64,000 nucleotides of DNA from an uncultured Actinomycetes bacterium. Lineage in GTDB: Bacteria > Actinomycetota > Acidimicrobiia > IMCC26256 > PALSA-610. The translations under genes were made by a program, and so were the position numbers. The DNA lies in contig CAVPMX010000002.1 in the NCBI GenBank assembly GCA_963706745.1, positions 204,936-268,935 of the forward strand, given 5' to 3'. Positions 2,344 to 58,936 of the stretch are shown here, piece after piece (position 1 is the first letter of the stretch; each line of letters begins with the position of its first letter). A model generated the notes under the pieces. It saw nothing but the letters and a program-made list of their open reading frames with translations. It was not told where the DNA came from and did no database searches.

Positions 2344-4407
2344 ATGAACCCCGACGGCACAGCGGCCAACGGCCTCGGACCCGAAGAGCGGTACCTCGAC
2401 CGTGAGCTCTCGTGGCTCGACTTCAACGCTCGGGTGCTGGCCCTCGCCGAGGACGCAACGCTGCCGCTCCTCGAGAGGGCGAAGTTCTGCGCGATCTTCA
2501 GCCAGAACCTCGACGAGTTCTTCCAGGTGCGCGTATCCGCGCTACGGGAGCAGGTCCTCGCCGGCGTGCGCGGGAGCACTCCGGGCAGCCTCGCCCCGGC
2601 GGAGCAGCTCCGGGCGATTCGGGACCGGGCCGAGGAGCTGGTCACACGTCAGGCGACGGTCTTCACCAAGGAGGTCGTCCCCGCCCTCGACGATGCGGGG
2701 ATCCGCTTCGTCTCCTGGTCGGACCTCGACGCCGCCGGCAAGGCGCACGTCTCCGACGTCTTCGAGGAGCAGATCTTCTCGGTTCTCACGCCCTTGGCCG
2801 TCGACCCGGCACACCCGTTCCCCTACATCTCCAACCTCTCCCTCAACCTCGCAGTCGCCGTGCGCAACGCAGCGAGCGGAGAGGAGCGGTTCGCGCGGGT
2901 GAAGGTCCCCCCGGTGCTCCCGCGCTTCGTCGCACTCCCCGACGGTGTGCGGTTCGTCCCGCTCGAGCAGGTGATCGCCGCGCACCTCGGATCCTTGTTC
3001 CCCGGGATGGAGATACTCGCCCACCATCCGTTCCGGGTCACGCGTGACGCCGACATCGAGCTGACCGACGAGTCGGAAGACCTGTTGGCGGCGATGGAGA
3101 GCGTGCTCCGGCAGCGATCGCGCTTCGGGCTGGAGATCCGCCTCGAGATCGACACCACGATGCCAACGCAGGTGCTGGAGCTGTTGTGCCGAGAGCTCGA
3201 GCTCGCTCCGTCGGACGTCTACGTCATCGACGGGCCCCTCGACCTCGGCGGCCTCTGGGACATCTACTCGCTGCCGCGACCCGAGCTCAAGTACGCCCCG
3301 TGGGCCGGGCGTATCCCCCCGGCCCTGGCCGGCGAGGAACCCGACTTCTTCCGCGCGCTGCGCGCTGGCGACATCTTCGTCCACCATCCGTACGACTCGT
3401 TCGCCAGTACCGTCGAGGCGTTCACGGCTCAGGCGGCCGCCGACCCTCACGTCCTCGCCATCAAGCAGACGCTGTACCGCACCGGGGGAGACGAGGCCGG
3501 CATCGTGCGGTCTCTCGCCAAGGCCGCTCAGGACGGCAAGCAGGTCGTCGCCCTGATCGAGCTGAAGGCCCGCTTCGACGAGCAGGCGAACATCGAGCGT
3601 GCCCGCCTGCTCGAGCAGGCCGGGGTGCACGTCGTGTACGGGTTCGTCGGCCTCAAGACCCACGGCAAGACGCTCCTGGTGGTACGCCAGGACCCCGACG
3701 GGCTCCGCCGGTACTGCCACCTCGGTACGGGCAACTACAACCCGAAGACGGCCACGACGTACGAGGACGTGGGCGTCCTCTCGGCCGACCCCGATCTCGG
3801 CTCCGACCTGACGGAGCTCTTCAACCACCTGACCGGGTACAGCCACCAGTCCGAGTATCGACGGATCATCGTCGCCCCGACACAGCTGAGGCCCGCGCTG
3901 GCCGACCTGATCGCGGGGCAGGCACGCCCCGGGGGCCGGATCACGATGAAGATGAACTCGCTGGTCGACCGGGCCACGATCGACGCCCTGTACGAAGCCT
4001 CTTCCGCCGGCGCCGAGATCGACCTCGTCGTTCGTGGGATCTGCTGCGCGCGCCCCGGCCTGCCGGACACCTCCGAGCGGATCCGGATCCGCTCGATACT
4101 CGGCCGCTACCTCGAGCACTCGCGGATATTCCGGTTCGGCGAGCCCGGCGCGGCCGACTACCTGATCGGGTCGGCGGATCTCATGCCCAGGAACCTCGAT
4201 CGCCGCGTCGAGGTGGCGCTTCGGGTCACCGACCCGCGCCTCCAGTCGCGCCTCGACGAGATCCTCGCCGTCAATCTCGCCGACGACACCCTCGCATGGT
4301 CTCTCGCCCCCGACGGCGTCTGGCACAAGGTGCCCACCGTGGAAGGATCCGACACGCACGACCGCCTCCAGGAGCTCGCTCTGGCTCGGACTGCGAGCGT
4401 GGATTGA
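2344..4407 (+). CDS. ppk: polyphosphate kinase 1
   Basis: Within track ORF 1012..4407, the in-frame ATG at 2344 gives MNPDGTAANG...RYLDRELSWLDFNARVLALAEDATLPLLERAKFCAIFSQNLDEFFQVRV, the PPK1 N-terminal signature, with PLD-like C-domains. The 1012-2343 part is a shadow antisense to the MFS gene. Confidence 0.95.
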   Translation: MNPDGTAANGLGPEERYLDRELSWLDFNARVLALAEDATLPLLERAKFCAIFSQNLDEFFQVRVSALREQVLAGVRGSTPGSLAPAEQLRAIRDRAEELVTRQATVFTKEVVPALDDAGIRFVSWSDLDAAGKAHVSDVFEEQIFSVLTPLAVDPAHPFPYISNLSLNLAVAVRNAASGEERFARVKVPPVLPRFVALPDGVRFVPLEQVIAAHLGSLFPGMEILAHHPFRVTRDADIELTDESEDLLAAMESVLRQRSRFGLEIRLEIDTTMPTQVLELLCRELELAPSDVYVIDGPLDLGGLWDIYSLPRPELKYAPWAGRIPPALAGEEPDFFRALRAGDIFVHHPYDSFASTVEAFTAQAAADPHVLAIKQTLYRTGGDEAGIVRSLAKAAQDGKQVVALIELKARFDEQANIERARLLEQAGVHVVYGFVGLKTHGKTLLVVRQDPDGLRRYCHLGTGNYNPKTATTYEDVGVLSADPDLGSDLTELFNHLTGYSHQSEYRRIIVAPTQLRPALADLIAGQARPGGRITMKMNSLVDRATIDALYEASSAGAEIDLVVRGICCARPGLPDTSERIRIRSILGRYLEHSRIFRFGEPGAADYLIGSADLMPRNLDRRVEVALRVTDPRLQSRLDEILAVNLADDTLAWSLAPDGVWHKVPTVEGSDTHDRLQELALARTASVD

Positions 4408-5284: not shown

Positions 5285-5402
5285 GCGTTCGACGCCGCCG
5301 TTCGTGGGAGCGTGCTCGTCTTCGTCTCGCCCACGCTCGCCGAGCCCCGCGGTCGTAGACTCGCACCGTCGCGACGCAACCGCGTCCGCCGAGAGGAGGG
5401 GC

Positions 5403-5510
5403 ATGACAATCGAGTCCGGCCGGTTGGCCGCCGACACCCCCTCCTCCGCCTACCTCGAGACACGGCGCGTCACGCACGAGTGCGAAGCCGTGCCCTCCGG
5501 ACTCGCGTGA
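5403..5510 (+). CDS. possible 35-aa small ORF
   Basis: ATG preceded by a strong SD (GAGAGGAGGGG, ~3 nt spacer). No recognisable similarity. Speculative. Confidence 0.2.
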   Translation: MTIESGRLAADTPSSAYLETRRVTHECEAVPSGLA

Positions 5511-18252: not shown

Positions 18253-19137
18253 GTGCTGGAGTGCGTCGCCAACGTCTCGGAGGGCCGGGACGCCCGGGTG
18301 ATCGACGCTCTCGCCGCGGCCTGCCGGCCCTCGCTCCTCGACCTGCACTCCGACCCGGATCACAACCGGAGCGTCTTCACTCTCGCCGGTCCGGGCGAGC
18401 GCGACGCCGGCGCGGCGGCCCGTTCACTCGCCGACTCGGTCGCCCGTCTCGTCAGCATCGTCGGGCACGAGGGTGTGCACCCACGCCTGGGGGCGCTCGA
18501 CGTGGTGCCCTTCGTGGCCCTGGGTGGCCCGGCACCGCGGCGCGACGACGCCGTCGAGGCGGCGCACTCCTTCGCCCGCTGGTGGGCGGAGACGTTCGAG
18601 GTCCCGGTCTTCCTCTACGACGACGCCTCCCCGACCGGCGCGACCCTCCCGGCCGTGCGCCGCGATGCGTTCCGCACGATCCCGCCCGATCTCGGTCCCC
18701 CGTCGCCGCACCCGACCCTCGGCGCCACTGCCGTCGGCGCTCGCACGCCCCTGGTGGCCGTCAACTGCCACCTCGACGTCGGCGACCTCGACGTCGCGAA
18801 GCGCATCGCGTCGGCCGCCAGGGAGGCCGGCGGTGGGCTCCCGGGAGTCCGGGCTCTCGGGCTCTCTCTCGCGTCGGCCCGCTGCGTTCAGGTGTCGATG
18901 AACCTCGTCGATCTCGCAGCGACTGGCCTGGAGGCCGCCGTTGCACGGGTCCGGGAGCTGGCCCGGCTCGACGGGGCCGAGGTGGCCCGTGTCGAGGTCG
19001 TCGGGCTCGTGCCGGAAGCCGAGCTGGCCCGCTGCAGTCGCGGGTTCACCGACTGGGCCCGCATCGGCCCGTCGATCACGATCGAGGCGCGCCTGGTGGC
19101 CCCCACTCCCTGCGGGGACTCCGGCCCAGCCGGTTGA
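18253..19137 (+). CDS. glutamate formimidoyltransferase (FtcD N-domain type)
   Basis: MLECVANVSEGRD start and DPDHNRSVFT motif, characteristic of formiminotransferases. Confidence 0.8.
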   Translation: MLECVANVSEGRDARVIDALAAACRPSLLDLHSDPDHNRSVFTLAGPGERDAGAAARSLADSVARLVSIVGHEGVHPRLGALDVVPFVALGGPAPRRDDAVEAAHSFARWWAETFEVPVFLYDDASPTGATLPAVRRDAFRTIPPDLGPPSPHPTLGATAVGARTPLVAVNCHLDVGDLDVAKRIASAAREAGGGLPGVRALGLSLASARCVQVSMNLVDLAATGLEAAVARVRELARLDGAEVARVEVVGLVPEAELARCSRGFTDWARIGPSITIEARLVAPTPCGDSGPAG

Positions 19138-19240
19138 CGCCGAACGCCGTCAGACGCGCGCGGAACGCGTCGGAGGGCCCGGCGGGCGGGCGTAGGTCGC
19201 CCCGGAGTCGACCGGGACCAAGCGGGGTGGTGCCGGCGGG

Positions 19241-19531
19241 TCAGGCCGAGGAGGCGAGGCCCCTGCGGGCCAACGCACGCTGTCGGCGCAGGCGACGTCT
19301 CTCCCGCTCCGACATGCCTCCCCAGATCCCGAACTTCTCCCCGTTGCGCAGCGCGTACTCCAGGCAGTCGAGGCGCACCTCGCAACCGCCGCAGACGCCC
19401 TTCGCCTCCTTGGTGGAGGCGCCGCGCTCCGGGAAGAACAGGTCGGGGTCGACCCCGAGGCAGTTGGAACGCTCCTGCCACCGCCGGTCCTCGATCTCTT
19501 GCTCCAGTGTCTGCACCAGGCTCTCCCTCAC
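19241..19531 (-). CDS. WhiB-family transcriptional regulator
   Basis: WQERSNCLGVDPDLFFPERGASTKEAKGVCGGCEVRLDCLEYALRNGEKFGIWGGMSERERRRL. GTG start. Confidence 0.9.
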   Translation of the reverse strand: MRESLVQTLEQEIEDRRWQERSNCLGVDPDLFFPERGASTKEAKGVCGGCEVRLDCLEYALRNGEKFGIWGGMSERERRRLRRQRALARRGLASSA

Positions 19532-19554
19532 CGGCCGCCCCCTCTGCCGTCACG

Positions 19555-19602
19555 AAATGCTGCCGGAACCGCTGCCGGAAATGCTGCCGGAAATGCTGCC
19601 GA
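19555..19602 (-). repeat. four tandem 12-bp repeats in the whiB-like gene leader/promoter
   Basis: Plus strand: AAATGCTGCCGG|AACCGCTGCCGG|AAATGCTGCCGG|AAATGCTGCCGA. Located 24-71 nt upstream of GTG 19531. A fifth degenerate CGGCAG follows in phase. Confidence 0.85.
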
Positions 19603-34822: not shown

Positions 34823-35092
34823 ATGGAACTGCCCGAAGAGGTCGTCGACGATCTTCTCCGCCGCCTGCGCCGCATCGAGGGGCAGGTGCGCGGCGTCCAG
34901 GGCATGCTCTCCGAGCACCGCGAGTGCCGCGACGTCGTCACCCAGATAGCGGCCGCCACCAAGGCTCTCGAGCAGGTCGGTTTCAAGCTCCTCGCGTCGG
35001 GGCTCACCTCGTGCCTGCAGGATCCCGCCCGGGCGGAGGCCGAGGGCTATCCGGTCGAGGAGGTCGAGCGCCTCTTCCTCAAGCTGACGTGA
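34823..35092 (+). CDS. csoR: CsoR/RcnR-family metal-sensing repressor (DUF156)
   Basis: LLRRLRRIEGQVRGVQGMLSEHRECRDVVTQIAAATKALEQVG, a typical CsoR helix bundle with Cys/His ligand positions. Confidence 0.85.
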   Translation: MELPEEVVDDLLRRLRRIEGQVRGVQGMLSEHRECRDVVTQIAAATKALEQVGFKLLASGLTSCLQDPARAEAEGYPVEEVERLFLKLT

Positions 35093-35102
35093 GCTGACGT
35101 GA

Positions 35103-35286
35103 GCATGAGTGAGGCCGCCGCCGTCCGCTCCGGGCCGACCCAGGCCGGCCGAGCGTGGCCCGAGCGGCCCGGCCCGCAGGGCCAGGAGCGGGAAGCATGA
35201 GTGAGGCCGCCGCCGTCCGCTCCGGGCCGACCCAGGCCGGCCGAGCGTGGCCCGAGCGGCCCGGCCCGCAGGGCCAGGAGCGGGAA
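35103..35286 (+). repeat. two tandem 92-bp MIRU-like units, each a 31-codon mini-ORF with an ATGA stop/start overlap
   Basis: Unit = GC ATGAGTGAGGCCGCCGCCGTCCGCTCCGGGCCGACCCAGGCCGGCCGAGCGTGGCCCGAGCGGCCCGGCCCGCAGGGCCAGGAGCGGGAA. ATGs at 35105, 35197 and 35289 (period 92). Mini-ORFs span 35105-35200 and 35197-35292 (MSEAAAVRSGPTQAGRAWPERPGPQGQERE[A/S]*). The last ATGA is the start of the CoA-transferase gene. Confidence 0.9.
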
Positions 35287-35288
35287 TC

Positions 35289-36527
35289 ATGAGCATGAGC
35301 GGTGGACCGCTGGCCGGGGTCCGCGTGCTCGACTTCTCCAGGGTCCTCGCAGGCCCGTACTGCGGGCGCATGCTCTCCGACCTCGGGGCCGACGTCGTCA
35401 AGATCGAGCCTCCCGAGGGCGACCTGACCCGCTTCGCGGACCCGAAGGTGAACTCGATCTCGCTCTACTACGCGCAGCAGAACACCGGGAAGCGCAACGT
35501 CTCGATCGACCTGCGCCGCGCCGAGGGAGTCGACCTCGCACTCCGCCTCGCCGAGCGCGCCGACGTCGTGCTGGAGAACTCCCGACCCGGCGTGATGGAC
35601 CGGCTCGGCCTCGGGTACGACGCCGTCTCGTCGCGGAACCCGCGGGTCGTATACGCGTCGATCACCGGCTATGGCCAGAGCGGGCCGTGGTCGGGACGCC
35701 GCGGATACGCCGTGCTCGTACACGCCGAGGCCGGCCTCGACGAGGCGGGCGCAAGGCTCCGCCGCGACGCGGGCGACCCCGACGCGACCCCCGTGCAGGA
35801 CGGCACGTCGCACGCCGACGTCTATGCGGGGCTGCACGCCGCGTCGGCGATCCTCGCGTCGCTGTTCGCGCGCGAGCACACCGGTAGCGGACAGCACATC
35901 GACGTCTCGATGGCAGAGGCGATGCTGCACACCAACGACTTCGCGCACTGGGATCTCGTCGGCGCCGAGACGGGCGACAGGTGGGCAGCCCTGGCACCCG
36001 CGTACTCCCCGATCGTGCGCACCGGAGCAGGATGCTCGATCACGATCGCCGGCGACCCGGTCGCCCCGGGCCTCTTCGAGCGCTACCTCGCCGCCCTGGA
36101 TCGTCGCGACCTCGCCGACGACCCGCGCTTCGCCATGGAGCGACGTCGGCTGCACCGACGCGAGCTCCTGCACCTGATCGAGGAGTGGACACTCACCTTC
36201 GACGACGTCGACCGCCTCGAGGCGGTGCTCGACGCTCACGGTCTGCCGGTCGGACGCCTGCGAACCGTCTCCGAGCTGCTGGAGACCGACTGGGCGCGCG
36301 AGCGCGGGGTCGTCGCGCAGGTCCCCGATCGCGGGCAGGGGACCATCCCCGTGCCCCAGGCGCCATGGCGGTTCTCCTCGCTGCCCGTCGGCGTGCGTGG
36401 CGAGCCTGCATACCGCGGCGAGCACAACCGCGAGGTGCTCGGGGAGCAGCTCGGGCTCACCGGCGAGGAGCTCGACGCCCTGGACCACGACGGGGTGATC
36501 TCGAGTCGCCTGCCCCGGGATCGCTGA
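35289..36527 (+). CDS. CaiB/BaiF family III CoA-transferase
   Basis: MSMSGGPLAGVRVLDFSRVLAGPYCGRMLSDLGADVVKIEPPEGD is a canonical family III N-terminus. Confidence 0.9.
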   Translation: MSMSGGPLAGVRVLDFSRVLAGPYCGRMLSDLGADVVKIEPPEGDLTRFADPKVNSISLYYAQQNTGKRNVSIDLRRAEGVDLALRLAERADVVLENSRPGVMDRLGLGYDAVSSRNPRVVYASITGYGQSGPWSGRRGYAVLVHAEAGLDEAGARLRRDAGDPDATPVQDGTSHADVYAGLHAASAILASLFAREHTGSGQHIDVSMAEAMLHTNDFAHWDLVGAETGDRWAALAPAYSPIVRTGAGCSITIAGDPVAPGLFERYLAALDRRDLADDPRFAMERRRLHRRELLHLIEEWTLTFDDVDRLEAVLDAHGLPVGRLRTVSELLETDWARERGVVAQVPDRGQGTIPVPQAPWRFSSLPVGVRGEPAYRGEHNREVLGEQLGLTGEELDALDHDGVISSRLPRDR

Positions 36528-43333: not shown

Positions 43334-44467
43334 TCACGGGATCAGAGGGTAGTAGGGACCGTCGCGAGTGATCTCGGGTGTGCTCTCGAAAGCCTCGAGC
43401 ATCGGGTAGAGGTCGAGACTGTCGCGAGGCATGCTCCAGTCGAGATCGCCGGTACATCCCGCGGCGTCGGCGAACGGTCTGATGAACGAGTAGTAGACGT
43501 ATGCCCCCGCGTCGATCTTCTCGCGCCTCTCCATGCCGGCGATCAGCCTGTAGCAGCGCTTCTGGGCGTCCTTCACGGCGGCGGCCAGAGCGTCGGCACC
43601 GGCGGAGTCGATCGGCGCGAGTCGCCCGCCCGACGTGTCGAAGAGGCCGAACGACTGCACGTGCGGCAGGTAGTCCTCCGGCTCGGTCAGCGAGGTGCCC
43701 CAGTCGGTCACCCTCAGGCGGACGCCGTCGAGCACGAACGCCGCGAGCACGTTGTCGTTCGGGAGGTCGCACGCGACCTCGGCACTCCACGGGAAATCGG
43801 AGACACCGAACTTGTTGAACGCCCGCAGCAGCAGCACGCGTCCGTCGGGGAGGACGTACGGGCCGGTGTCCTGGTAGCCCGCACGCGTGTCGAAGTAGAG
43901 GAGGAAGAGGTAGGAGGTGAGGAGCGCATTGAGGCGCTGGATCTTGGAGCGCCGCTCGTCGGTGACGGGTTCGCACCCGGCTACCACCTCGTCGACGTAT
44001 TCGGAGTACGGGCGGTTGACGCCACCGGTGTCCCACGCCTGGTGCGCGGCCCCCGCGTGGTACGCCCGGGCGGCGCGCTCCCAGAACTCGACCATGATCC
44101 CGCAGCGCGCGAGGTCTTCGTCCCAGTCGATCATCCCGGCAGTTGCGAGGACGTTGCGCCCGGTCAAGAAGATGTTGGTGAGCGACCACAGGTGCACCGC
44201 ATCGACCTGGTTGCCGACCGTGCGACCGGTCGCGCCGATCTCCTCGGGCGGCCTCGCCGCCGCGACCACTCGCAGCATCTCCGGGTGGCGTCGATAGCAC
44301 TCGATGCCCGAGATGAGGATGTATGCCGTCACCGGGATGAGGGCCGACTCCAACGCCGTGCGCTGCACGGTGAGCGTGTAGGAGATCTCCCCGTGGTACT
44401 CCAGCCACCGATTGACGGCGGCCTTGTCCCACCCGGCCGGCGGCTCGAGAGCTCCCGCGCCGCTCAC
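43334..44467 (-). CDS. hypothetical protein (377 aa), family not recognised
   Basis: Balanced, globular-looking composition (WLEYHGEISYTLTVQRTALESALIPVTAYILISGIECYRRHPEML...YVYYSFIRPFADAAGCTGDLDW). 4-nt overlap with the upstream gene. Confidence 0.65.
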   Translation of the reverse strand: MSGAGALEPPAGWDKAAVNRWLEYHGEISYTLTVQRTALESALIPVTAYILISGIECYRRHPEMLRVVAAARPPEEIGATGRTVGNQVDAVHLWSLTNIFLTGRNVLATAGMIDWDEDLARCGIMVEFWERAARAYHAGAAHQAWDTGGVNRPYSEYVDEVVAGCEPVTDERRSKIQRLNALLTSYLFLLYFDTRAGYQDTGPYVLPDGRVLLLRAFNKFGVSDFPWSAEVACDLPNDNVLAAFVLDGVRLRVTDWGTSLTEPEDYLPHVQSFGLFDTSGGRLAPIDSAGADALAAAVKDAQKRCYRLIAGMERREKIDAGAYVYYSFIRPFADAAGCTGDLDWSMPRDSLDLYPMLEAFESTPEITRDGPYYPLIP

Positions 44468-44811
44468 GCGGGCCGCCGGACGACGCCCAGCTCACCGCTG
44501 CAGTCGATCTCGACCGTGTCGCCGTTCGCCGGCTCGTCGCCGAGGGTGGTGCCCATGACGCACGGCACCTGGTACTCGCGACTCACGATCCCCACGTGGC
44601 TCTGCGGGGTGCCCGAGAGGCAGACGACGGCCGTGAGCTCGTCGAAGATCGGGGCGAGGAACGTCGCGCCCGCGTCGGCCACGCAGGCCACGACCCCCTC
44701 GGCCGACCCGTCCATCAGATCGAGGACGTCGTCGGGGGAGTCGAGCCGCCGCCACACTCCCTGCACCGGTGCCGCGTCGAAGACCTTTGTTCCGCTTCCG
44801 ATCTCGCTCAT
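44464..44811 (-). CDS. stand-alone PEP-utilising-enzyme mobile (swivel phosphohistidine) domain protein
   Basis: GVVACVADAGATFLAPIFDELTAVVCLSGTPQSHVGIVSREYQVPCVMG resembles the PF00391 swivel domain with the candidate phospho-His. ATG 44811 has a GGAGCGGAG SD. An in-frame 31-codon extension from ATG 44904 is possible. Confidence 0.8.
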   Translation of the reverse strand: MSEIGSGTKVFDAAPVQGVWRRLDSPDDVLDLMDGSAEGVVACVADAGATFLAPIFDELTAVVCLSGTPQSHVGIVSREYQVPCVMGTTLGDEPANGDTVEIDCSGELGVVRRPA

Positions 44812-45055
44812 GATCTCCGCTCCTGGCCCTGCGGGCCGGGCCGCTCGGGCCACGCTCGGCCAGCGCGGGACGCGAGCTCTCTCGTACAGGGCAGCCTCGC
44901 TCATGATCTCCGCTCCTGGCCCTGCGGGCCGGGCCGCTCGGGCCACGCTCGGCCGCGCGGGACGCGAGCTCTCTCGTGCTGGGCAGCCTCGCTCATGATC
45001 TCCGCTCCTGGCCGCGCGGGACGCGAGCTCTCTCGTACAGGGCAGCCTCGCTCAT
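44812..45055 (-). repeat. tandem array of three MIRU-like units (93, 92 and 59 bp) forming uORFs in the operon leader
   Basis: Minus-strand ATGs at 45055, 44996, 44904 and 44811. uORF-C: MSEAALYERARVPRGQERRS* (ATGA overlap). uORF-B: MSEAAQHERARVPRGRAWPERPGPQGQERRS* (ATGA overlap). Unit A (93 bp) reads through in frame into the gene. The 3' ~45 bp are near-identical to the 35.1-kb units. Confidence 0.9.
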
Positions 45056-45166
45056 CGGCGGGGGAGCCTACCGAGGACCGCACGGGGAGGCGAAACGCGC
45101 AGCGCCGGTGACCGAGAGCGGCTCCGGCGTGCCTTCGCGGAGTCCCGCCCCGTACGATCGCAGCCC

Positions 45167-57830: not shown

Positions 57831-58055
57831 TCAGCGGGCGACGATCACGGCGACGACGGTGAGGGCGTAGACGACCGCGAGTAGGGCGACGAGCGCCCAG
57901 AGGCTCGCTGCGGTCAAGGGGTTGGGCCTCTCCGGCCCGGTCGACTGGTGGAGACCGCACGCCGGGCACCGCGCAGCACCGGCGGCGACAGGCGCGCCGC
58001 AGAGCATGCAGGCATCGCCTGCGGTGCCGGGCGAGGGCTCGGACTGAGCGGTCAC
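57831..58055 (-). CDS. small zinc-ribbon membrane protein (74 aa), coupled to folD
   Basis: Last 74 codons of the 657-aa track ORF. GTG in a GTGA overlap with the folD stop. CMLCG...CPACG plus a C-terminal TM helix (LWALVALLAVVYALTVVAVIV). Confidence 0.55.
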   Translation of the reverse strand: MTAQSEPSPGTAGDACMLCGAPVAAGAARCPACGLHQSTGPERPNPLTAASLWALVALLAVVYALTVVAVIVAR

Positions 58056-58097
58056 GATCTCCGCTCCTGGCCCTGCGACCCGGCCCGCCGCTCGGCC
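58052..58097 (-). repeat. partial copy (3' module) of the MIRU-like repeat embedded in the folD 3' end
   Basis: Minus strand: GAGCGGCGGGCCGGGTCGCAGGGCCAGGAGCGGAGATCGTGA, versus GAGCGGCCCGGCCCGCAGGGCCAGGAGCGGAGATCATGA at 44.8 kb. The 22 nt before the start codon are identical. Confidence 0.65.
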
Positions 58098-58936
58098 GCC
58101 TCGACGGTGGACCTGAGGAGCATCGCGATGGTCATCGGGCCGACACCCCCCGGGACCGGCGCGACCCACTCCGCCACCTCCATCACGTCGTCGGCGACGT
58201 CGCCGGCGATCCCCTCGTCGGTGCGCGTGATACCGACGTCGAGAACGGCCGCGCCGGGCTTGACCATGTCGGCCGTGATCAGCCCCGCCCTGCCTGTGGC
58301 CGCGACGAGGATGTCGGCCTGCCGGGTGAACTCCGGGAGGAAGTGCGTCCCCGTGTGGCACTGGGTCACGGTGGCGTTCGCGTTCTCGGCCTTGAGCGAC
58401 AGCAGCATCGAGAGCGGTCTGCCGACGGTCGGACCGCGCCCGACGATGACGACGTGGCGCTCCTCGATCGGCACCTTGTGCCGCACGAGCAGCTCGACGA
58501 TGCCCTGCGGCGTACCGGGCCTCGGGTGGCCGGGCACCCCGAGTGCGAGGTACCCGAGGTTCTGGGGATGGAGACCGTCGACGTCCTTGGTCGGATCGAC
58601 CGCGAGGATCAGCTCCGAGTAGTCGAGGTGGTCGGGGACCGGGTACTGGATCAGGTACCCGTCGACCTGCGGGTTCGCGTTGAGCTGCGCTATCAGGTCG
58701 AGCACCTCTTCTCGCGACGAGTCGGCCGCGAGGTCGTGCCTCCACGAGGCAACCCCCAGCTCCGCGCAGGCCCGGTGCTTGCTGCGGACGTACACGTGCG
58801 AGCCCGGGTCGTCGCCGATCAGGACCGTCGCGAGCCCGGGTGTGACGCCACGCTCGGCGAGGGACTCGACACGAGCCCGGAGCTCGTCCTTGATCACCGC
58901 AGCCTTGGCCCTGCCGTCGAGAATCGTCGCAGTCAC
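58052..58936 (-). CDS. folD: bifunctional methylenetetrahydrofolate dehydrogenase/cyclohydrolase
   Basis: ILDGRAKA...YVRSKHRAC...[14 protein letters not shown]...[15 protein letters not shown]. Confidence 0.95.

Follow-up and report, generated by a model that had tools for sequence, protein, structure and literature searches.

A dispersed family of short repeats at gene starts of Acidimicrobiia that probably acts as a translationally coupled relay, similar in working to mycobacterial interspersed repetitive units

The 64,000-nt stretch of DNA analysed here (the window) comes from an uncultured Actinomycetes bacterium of the class Acidimicrobiia (GenBank assembly GCA_963706745.1, contig CAVPMX010000002.1, positions 204,936 to 268,935 of the forward strand). 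It carries two tandem arrays and one relic of a repeat unit of about 92 nt. Each array ends where a gene starts, and each intact unit contains a short open reading frame (ORF) of its own, referred to below as the mini-ORF. In our judgement these repeats probably represent a start-codon-targeting, translationally coupled relay element, which resembles the interspersed repetitive units of mycobacteria (MIRUs) in its working.

According to this interpretation, the element would be a tandemly amplifiable unit of ~92 nt (~60–116 nt within the family) that is located exactly at the start codon of a gene and in the orientation of that gene. The original initiation signal of the gene, either a Shine-Dalgarno (SD) sequence or the stop codon of the upstream cistron, would then drive translation of the mini-ORF. 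A ribosome that ends the mini-ORF would terminate on the start codon of the gene and reinitiate there, aided by the exposed SD of the element. Tandem units would work as a relay. In this manner the element could occupy operon junctions and 5′ ends of genes without polar damage. It is our guess that its hairpins keep the SD and the start codon unpaired, whatever lies upstream.

Array 1 is found on the plus strand between the gene of a CsoR-family repressor (PF02583), which ends at 35092, and the gene of a family III CoA-transferase (PF02515, 412 aa, 35289–36527). An earlier reading of this DNA made from its letters alone (the sequence-only reading) had proposed that two near-identical 92-bp units fill the spacer, and this was confirmed. 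Tandem Repeats Finder reports a period of 92 at 35102–35293 (2.1 copies, 99% matches, score 377), and the units at 35105–35196 and 35197–35288 show a single mismatch, GAAGC vs. GAATC. Both begin with ATGAGTGAGG and contain a mini-ORF of 31 codons plus TGA (35105–35200 and 35197–35292) with the product MSEAAAVRSGPTQAGRAWPERPGPQGQERE(A/S). The TGA of each mini-ORF is placed inside the next ATGA, at 35197–35200 and at 35289–35292, and the latter overlaps the ATG of the CoA-transferase gene. The SD-like sequence AGGAGCGG occupies 35184–35191 in unit 1 and 35276–35283 in unit 2 and is followed by 5 nt and then the next ATG. The chain of ATGA overlaps, each preceded by a GGAG-type SD, is therefore as the sequence-only reading described it, and the period is indeed the one such a chain requires (92 = 31 × 3 + 3 − 4). 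The final ATGA turned out to be the start of the CoA-transferase; the product read from ATG 35289 is 100% identical to a called protein, and its orthologues start at the equivalent place. Upstream of the SD, each unit has two potential hairpins: hairpin 1, GGCC-CGAGC-GGCC (35157–35169 in unit 1 and 35249–35261 in unit 2), the stem of which covaries across the family, and hairpin 2, GGCCC-GCA-GGGCC, with a 5-bp stem and a GNA loop (35171–35183 and 35263–35275). A 45-nt core of the unit has 4 exact occurrences in the window vs. 0 in 100 shuffles, and it was found again in many independent assemblies.

The upstream junction of array 1 contains a 10-bp direct duplication, CTGACGTGAG twice in succession at 35084–35103, which includes the csoR stop TGA (35090–35092), as had been claimed. 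Tandem Repeats Finder also lists this 10-nt repeat, at 35082–35113. The duplication separates the csoR stop from the start of the first mini-ORF, so that the two do not overlap: the ATG lies 12 nt 3′ of the stop, and an in-frame GTG (35099) lies 6 nt 3′ of it.

The gene order AMP-ligase, csoR, CoA-transferase is common to the close homologues of this CoA-transferase. In the metagenome-assembled genome (MAG) FR_1 (locus L147, 89% identity) the site is empty, and the csoR stop directly overlaps the CoA-transferase start (ACATGAGAC, ATGA). Locus L143 (84% identity) holds a single unit, exactly 92 nt long, with an ATGA overlap at either end; its hairpins and SD are decayed, so degenerate copies do exist. 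Two other loci (L144 and L145) reveal an unrelated 38-nt spacer. The junction accordingly harbors 0, 1 or 2 units in organisms whose CoA-transferases share 84–89% amino acid identity with that of the window, i.e., the variation is between species. The flanks of the window array, GTGAGCATGAG on the left and ATGAGCATGAG on the right, contain the direct repeat (G/A)TGAGCATGAG on both sides. Observed at this one site, the flanks would fit either duplication or recombination at the ATGAG core.

Array 2 is located on the minus strand (45055–44812) between divergent genes. Its three units of 59, 92, and 93 nt abut the ATG at 44811 of a gene encoding a 115-aa PEP-utilising enzyme mobile domain protein (44464–44811), and Tandem Repeats Finder reports a second 92-nt period at 44803–45020. 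Unit 1 (44997–45055) has a 20-codon ORF ending in ATGA and again a length of 3n−1. It shows a 33-nt deletion between two GGCC repeats, with which both hairpins have gone, and it keeps the SD, the frame, and the ATGA. Unit 2 (44905–44996) has a 31-codon ORF ending in ATGA. Unit 3 (44812–44904) has one extra T, because of which its ORF reads in frame into the downstream gene. It is possible that this unit extends the PEP-utiliser-domain protein by 31 N-terminal amino acids; its AGGAGCGG and ATG 44811, 5 nt further on, are still usable for normal initiation. The two arrays have in common the first 15 nt of the unit (ATGAGYGAGGCYGCC) and the last ~50 nt. The shared 3′ part comprises an exact run of 46 nt (positions 42–87), with AGGAGCGG and most of the spacer, whereas a mid-unit stretch of ~27 nt shows no relation between the arrays. 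A scan for promoters and terminators around array 2 found none. A TAGGCT occurs 9 nt upstream of the first ATG of this array (45056–45080, minus strand), and the first mini-ORF might begin a leaderless transcript.

The relic, GGCCGAGCGGCGGGCCGGGTCGCAGGGCCAGGAGCGGAGATCGTGA, is also on the minus strand (58052–58104) and corresponds to the 3′ half of a unit. Though diverged, it encodes the last residues of FolD, that is, the C-terminal tail of the protein. The FolD stop overlaps the GTG at 58055 of the next gene (GTGA), which encodes a 74-aa zinc-ribbon protein. At this site a relic of the repeat has evidently turned into coding sequence.

The distribution of the repeat was assessed by two scans. 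The first covered a genome collection without the window's own genome, with one genome per species, and used the pattern GGCCGAGCG-N(5–30)-GCAGGGCCAGGAGCGG, in which no start codon was specified. It yielded 21 loci, 15 of which are true copies and 6 of which are chance-like matches inside genes. The true loci belong to five Acidimicrobiia MAGs and to one 19-kb contig binned as Bifidobacteriaceae. A search with a unit profile over these 15 loci and the window gave 20 arrays comprising 31 units, plus the FolD relic. Over the family as a whole, units measure 59–116 nt and arrays have 1–3 copies. The second scan was directed at metagenomes, with a pattern in which the 13-nt hairpin and all that follows AGGAGCGGR were left free. 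The family module was detected in at least 120 contigs. All metagenome counts reported here are among the matches listed (at least 120 contigs and at least 135 matches, representing 129 distinct contexts). The two scans show the repeats to be a dispersed family in Acidimicrobiia and related environmental genomes. When 2.9 million viral contigs were scanned with the metagenome pattern, one chance-like match without the hairpin was the only result, and there is no sign among these contigs that phages carry the repeat. A protein search with a 45-aa ORF of the window returned 6 matches only, which is uninformative on taxonomic breadth. Rfam 15 gave no match, neither for the window as a whole at gathering thresholds nor for 35050–35350 at E ≤ 1. 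A literature search by concept and by literal sequence strings yielded the MIRU precedent only and no description of such a family; most of the content of subscription journals was outside that search, and the absence is not proof. As far as could be checked, the family is previously undescribed.

The position of the copies is closely tied to gene starts. The sequence-only reading had named this as a test for the core, and the metagenome pattern, which contains no start codon, bears it out: of 129 copies, 71 have a start codon at a distance of exactly 5 nt from the end of AGGAGCGG vs. 3.8 expected, and 92 have one at +4 to +7 vs. 16 expected. An ORF of at least 60 codons opens from that start in 82 of the 87 assessable arrays, as compared to 62% for random ATG/GTG codons. 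The second codon of the downstream genes is AGC or AGT in 33 cases out of 82. Similarly, 15 of the 20 genome-locus arrays have an ORF of at least 74 aa that starts 2–7 nt after the SD (4–7 nt in 13 of them). The products of the downstream genes include a CoA-transferase, PEP-utiliser domain, zinc-ribbon, and LapA-domain proteins, a cytochrome c assembly protein, methionine aminopeptidase, DUF1385, a flippase, and the nuoD, nuoF, and nuoG subunits, and are functionally unrelated. Three arrays are present in a single 8-kb nuo operon (L021, CAWIEA010000009.1), at the nuoC/D, nuoE/F, and nuoF/G junctions; in oriented coordinates they occupy 1927–2200 (nuoD, 3 units), 3977–4068 (nuoF, 1 unit), and 5394–5483 (nuoG, 1 unit).

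The upstream ends of the arrays follow a pattern as well. In L009, in L017, and at the nuoF/nuoG junction of L021, the stop codon of the preceding gene is where the first mini-ORF begins; in L006, L008, L014, and L016 the first mini-ORF has its own GGAGG 3–5 nt upstream. For L004 and L005 the TGA at the 5′ end of the unit serves as the upstream stop, but TTG and CTG, respectively, stand in place of the ATG. Stop overlap or an own GGAGG is what would be expected if a unit sits exactly on the original start codon of the gene. As for orientation, GC skew is uniformly negative across the window and has no switch, yet copies occur on both strands, which argues that the orientation follows the gene and not the replication fork.

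The reading frame is constrained too. Among the 31 genome-locus units, 25 contain an ORF of 20–31 codons whose stop overlaps the next start (ATGA, TGATG, or TAATG), and a stop overlapping the next start is also present in 80 of 124 units. For the metagenome set, unit length was measured, with the frame ignored, between the closest RTGAGYG on the upstream side and the start codon downstream. The constraint to 3n−1 or 3n named by the sequence-only reading was supported by 52 of 60 units, which are 3n−1 and fall into eleven length classes: 62, 77, 80, 83, 86 (24 units), 89, 92 (9 units), 98, 101, 113, and 116 nt. Each length class with at least two members (83, 86, 89, 92, and 101 nt) is 3n−1. 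Compensating indels point in the same direction. The 3′ module is in phase 2 with a spacer of 5 or 2 nt in 42 units and in phase 1 with a spacer of 6 or 3 nt in 9 units, so that an indel in the body is matched by an indel between SD and start. L015 shows the same compensation of phase and spacer, with TAATG. The claim that the mini-ORFs overlap the flanking stop and start codons stands for most units, but some units are of 3n length and fused in frame, and a minority break the rule. One fused unit is that of L016 (99–188, JAOSJK010000001.1), which continues into an FAD-dependent oxidoreductase (...QGQEREAFDVIVVGAGPG). Since the Rossmann motif FDVIVVGAGPG directly follows ...QGQEREA, the start codon of the unit is the only one available to this protein.

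The product of the mini-ORF is not what is preserved. In the variable part of the unit the GC content by codon position is 0.75/0.76/0.75; the genes of the window have a GC3 of ~0.9 and a GC2 of ~0.5. Compensatory changes in the hairpins alter the peptide, which reads GPQGQ, GAKRQ, or AAKRQ. By these measures the peptide is not conserved. It follows from the flat GC, the rewritten residues, and the use of two phases, which differ between subfamilies, that reading frame and site of termination have been retained but the peptide itself has not.

From 5′ to 3′, the unit is built of a start codon in RTGAGYG, a variable stretch, hairpin 1, hairpin 2, AGGAGCGG, ~5 nt, and the next start. The family consensus of hairpin 1 is GGSSC-CGAGC-GSSCC, and hairpin 2 has a 5-bp stem and a 3-nt loop. 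The stem of hairpin 2 is perfect in 113 of the 129 distinct contexts, in which it has 56 different sequences. When the 3′ arms were dealt among the sequences, the mean number of perfect stems was 24 (maximum 40), and when the partner was slid it was 0. A GNA loop is present in ~111 of 124 copies, and 122 of the 124 have C:G as the closing pair. C-GNA-G is a motif of unusually stable DNA mini-hairpins, e.g., d(GCGAAGC). RNAalifold, applied to 20 units, predicts both hairpins, with 99.4% of cells paired and 18 cells changed on both sides. The covariation score of these units was reached by 0 of 500 shuffles. Pair 55:63 of hairpin 1 switches between C:G (11 sequences) and G:C (9 sequences). This covariation shows that both hairpins are under constraint. 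It is covariation only that establishes the structure, since the z-scores of single sequences are unremarkable. Sequestration of the SD by the 5′ half of the unit, suggested by the fold of the locus-1 unit (CCGCUCC:GGAGCGG), was considered and rejected, as the SD is unpaired in 54 of 60 minimum free energy folds. The complementarity of the 5′ part to the SD is no greater than in shuffled sequence, and anti-SD pairing is not a feature of the family. The pairing in the locus-1 unit may be regarded as a local accident, because the SD is mostly unpaired family-wide.

Variants of this architecture were also noted. The nuoD array of L021 has a variant of hairpin 2, GACCC-GTC-GGGTC, with a compensatory change of G:C to A:U. 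A lower-GC subfamily (L022, L027, L035, L039, L048, L082, L100, L104, L110, and L133) has the same 3′ module, in which hairpin 2 is fixed as GCCGC-GAA-GCGGC, and a different 5′ part, GAGGCTCCGCAAA...TTTGCGGAGCC, with a possible long-range stem. In another subfamily with units of 83–86 nt (L023, L025, L040, L068, L083, L107, L118, L125, L130, and L131) the 5′ half forms a third hairpin. It has a covarying stem and the apex GGTAYCC, as in GCGGCAGG-TAC-CCTGCCGT and GGGCCGGG-TAT-CCCGGCCC.

PMC12548453, citing Supply et al. 1997, describes MIRUs as inserting at start codons with a coupled internal ORF, an arrangement that probably keeps their influence on expression small; its reference 78 covers coupling of translation by a short ORF upstream of a gene. 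The MIRU units of M. tuberculosis senX3-regX3 are 77 nt long (3n−1), read ATGACCTGCGCC...GGTGGGGGCACCACCCGCTTGCGGGGGAGAGTGGCGCTG followed by ATGACC, and have a TGATG overlap. Their fold predicts a hairpin GGUGG...CCACC, then a purine-rich SD and a short spacer; a possible second hairpin, CCCG-CUUG-CGGG, was recognised by eye only. The architecture is the same as that of the units reported here. Both are short (in 1–3 tandem copies here), are scattered over gene starts and operon junctions, and point in the direction of the gene; in both the stop of the unit ORF overlaps the next start, the length is 3n−1, and a hairpin in the 3′ part precedes the SD. The copy number of MIRUs varies between strains; that of the present units differs between species at one junction. 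The MIRU logic put forward by the sequence-only reading was thus upheld as regards start placement and 3n−1 length, but the repeats are not confined to intercistronic spacers, since array 2 lies between divergent genes. The two also differ in host, Mycobacterium vs. Acidimicrobiia (plus the one 19-kb contig binned as Bifidobacteriaceae), and in sequence, in which no similarity is detectable. A search by nhmmer with the unit profile gave no match in the senX3-regX3 MIRU region of M. tuberculosis (L142, 1357–1590), the best hits elsewhere having E > 0.6. The Acidimicrobiia unit is longer, starts with RTGAGYG, and has two widely covarying hairpins with a GNA loop; its family has many length subfamilies, and some copies are fused in frame to proteins. 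From this comparison the family appears to share the logic and the layout of MIRUs without being a member of the MIRU sequence family.

Two other systems have features in common with the repeat. The bicistronic design of Mutalik et al. 2013 is reportedly a synthetic counterpart of coupling through a short upstream ORF. There, too, the 3′ end of the leader holds the SD of the second cistron and the leader terminates on the start (ATGA or TAATG), which insulates expression from local RNA structure. In contrast to the present family, however, this design and other coupled leaders are single, engineered or locus-specific, and are not repeated, mobile, or amplifiable with conserved hairpins. Rickettsia palindromic elements are comparable in that copies are translated within host proteins, as would be the case here for the FolD tail, the N-terminus of the L016 oxidoreductase, and the 93-nt unit. 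In-frame insertion inside ORFs is the norm for those elements, whereas here fusion is the exception and would result when an indel changes the frame or a stop is lost.

A number of observations weigh against the relay interpretation. The first mini-ORF at locus 1 does not overlap csoR and is preceded by no clear SD, and the first unit of array 2 is also devoid of an SD. No gene start directly follows the unit in L001, L004, L005, and L007. The coupling scheme is broken by 8 of 60 units, which are not 3n−1 in length. Among the genome loci there are few deviations from 92 nt, and the indels are not biased to multiples of 3; the last array units of L006 and L021 are 91 nt long. In L004 (3260–3443, period 93) and L075 (period 70) the junctions have no start codon and the frame is open across units, a misfit to coupling, and the lower-GC subfamily, whose periods are 103/104 nt, has ATGGCG starts but no overlap of stop and start. 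Folds of single sequences are no better than those of shuffles, with z from +0.14 to −1.8 in five folds and −0.85 for the locus-1 unit. Mismatches in hairpin 2 are G:U in 10 cases and A:C in 9. As the two are equally frequent, an RNA hairpin and a single-stranded DNA hairpin cannot be told apart. Since parts of the 3′ module were fixed in the scan patterns, its conservation is partly an effect of ascertainment. Finally, the empty site comes from a single comparison, and no mobilising enzyme was identified.

A further-reaching proposal places the emphasis on the 3′ module. It states that the hairpins with the GNA loop, AGGAGCGG, and the RTGAGYG start are the functional heart of an unrecognised class of start-codon-targeting elements, in either or both of two forms. 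In the first form, the module would be a structure in single-stranded DNA or in RNA that a dedicated recombinase recognises when it integrates units at ATGAG starts. If true, this would also explain the movement of MIRUs. In the second form, it would be a reinitiation-promoting device under selection at each locus, with copy number tuning expression. Such a role is supported by the contrast between the 46 identical nt shared by the two window arrays and their unrelated ~27 nt in mid-unit, which points to selection or gene conversion acting on the module, not to simple decay. We consider this proposal possible, if unlikely.

Could the repeat be a selfish or neutral hairpin element of the repetitive extragenic palindromic (REP) type, the bacterial interspersed mosaic element (BIME) type, or the MITE (miniature inverted-repeat transposable element) type? 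The ORF, the SD, and the overlap would then be incidental to GC-richness and to descent from a 92-nt master copy. REP/BIME, ERIC, Correia, and RUP elements are likewise GC-rich, hairpin-forming, multi-copy, sometimes tandem, and placed between genes, and REP-like elements typically have hairpins. In the core all six frames are open, long open frames are frequent at 70% GC, and frame 3 is also open in most units; many copies share their length by descent; and the single-sequence folds are unremarkable. REP/BIME, ERIC, Correia, and RUP elements, however, mostly lie 3′ of genes or between convergent genes, in either orientation, and we know of no start codon, SD, or frame constraint in them, whereas the units described here have all three and are found at the 5′ ends of genes, strictly in the orientation of the downstream gene. 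Also against this view are eleven distinct length classes that are all 3n−1, indels compensated in two separate places, a 5-nt spacing to the start codon that is fixed though absent from the search pattern, and the decayed copy of L143, which retains its length and both overlaps. In our own reading of the unit alignments there are no terminal inverted repeats of the MITE kind; a direct repeat, (G/A)TGAGCATGAG, is seen at the one site mentioned above. We regard this explanation as rather improbable.

A cis-regulatory leader (an attenuator, an RNA thermometer, a riboswitch-like element, or a protein-binding site) that switches the gene, with the mini-ORF as a leader peptide, would also lie directly upstream of start codons and have conserved, covarying hairpins. 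CCGCUCC could pair with the SD, but it does so in the locus-1 unit only; family-wide the SD is mostly unpaired, and its complementarity to the 5′ region does not exceed that to shuffled sequence. The downstream genes have no common function, and the units are tandem and occur also within operons such as nuo. No terminator was found around array 2, Rfam gave no match even at E ≤ 1, and the peptide has no conserved regulatory codons. These data make a leader very improbable.

That the units encode a real ~31-aa protein (MSE...ERPGPQGQERE) with a function of its own is scarcely credible: the ORF is kept open, the gene caller of the source assembly called it as a 31-aa protein (P0242), and ERPGPQGQER recurs in many copies, but GC is flat over the codon positions, compensatory hairpin changes rewrite the peptide, the module is in the other frame in ~15% of the 3n−1 units, and the two window arrays have unrelated residues in mid-peptide. 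A CRISPR-like array of repeats and spacers was rejected, as the variable half is the same or nearly the same within an array and differs only between loci.

MIRUs have served as typing markers for 25 years, and the idea that they are mobile units which persist through translational coupling rests on few mycobacterial loci. The family reported here is independent of MIRUs, much more diverse, environmentally widespread, and built on the same logic. It provides comparative evidence not obtainable from mycobacteria, in the form of length classes in steps of 3, compensating indels, two phases, flat GC, and abundant hairpin covariation. It suggests that, in high-GC Actinomycetota, relay repeats which seek start codons are a general solution. 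Hundreds of natural variants should be helpful for dissecting both termination-reinitiation and the mechanism of insertion.

There is a warning for genome annotation as well: ORFs of 30 codons, N-terminal extensions, and odd C-terminal tails can be derived from repeats, as illustrated by the FolD tail and by extensions of the RegX3 kind. The M. tuberculosis RegX3 homologues P0001–P0006 are recorded with 245–347 aa vs. a normal 227 aa, and, at least in P0003 (256 aa, L142), the extra residues are due to a start that the gene call placed within the MIRU array. The start of the window's CoA-transferase poses the same annotation problem as these RegX3 calls.

The window contains another tandem repeat, which is unrelated to the family. 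Four tandem copies of an AT-richer 12-mer, GAAATGCTGCCG, occupy 19554–19601 (Tandem Repeats Finder score 82). They adjoin, just outside, the start of a minus-strand ORF (18888–19553), and could be repeated operator-like sites.

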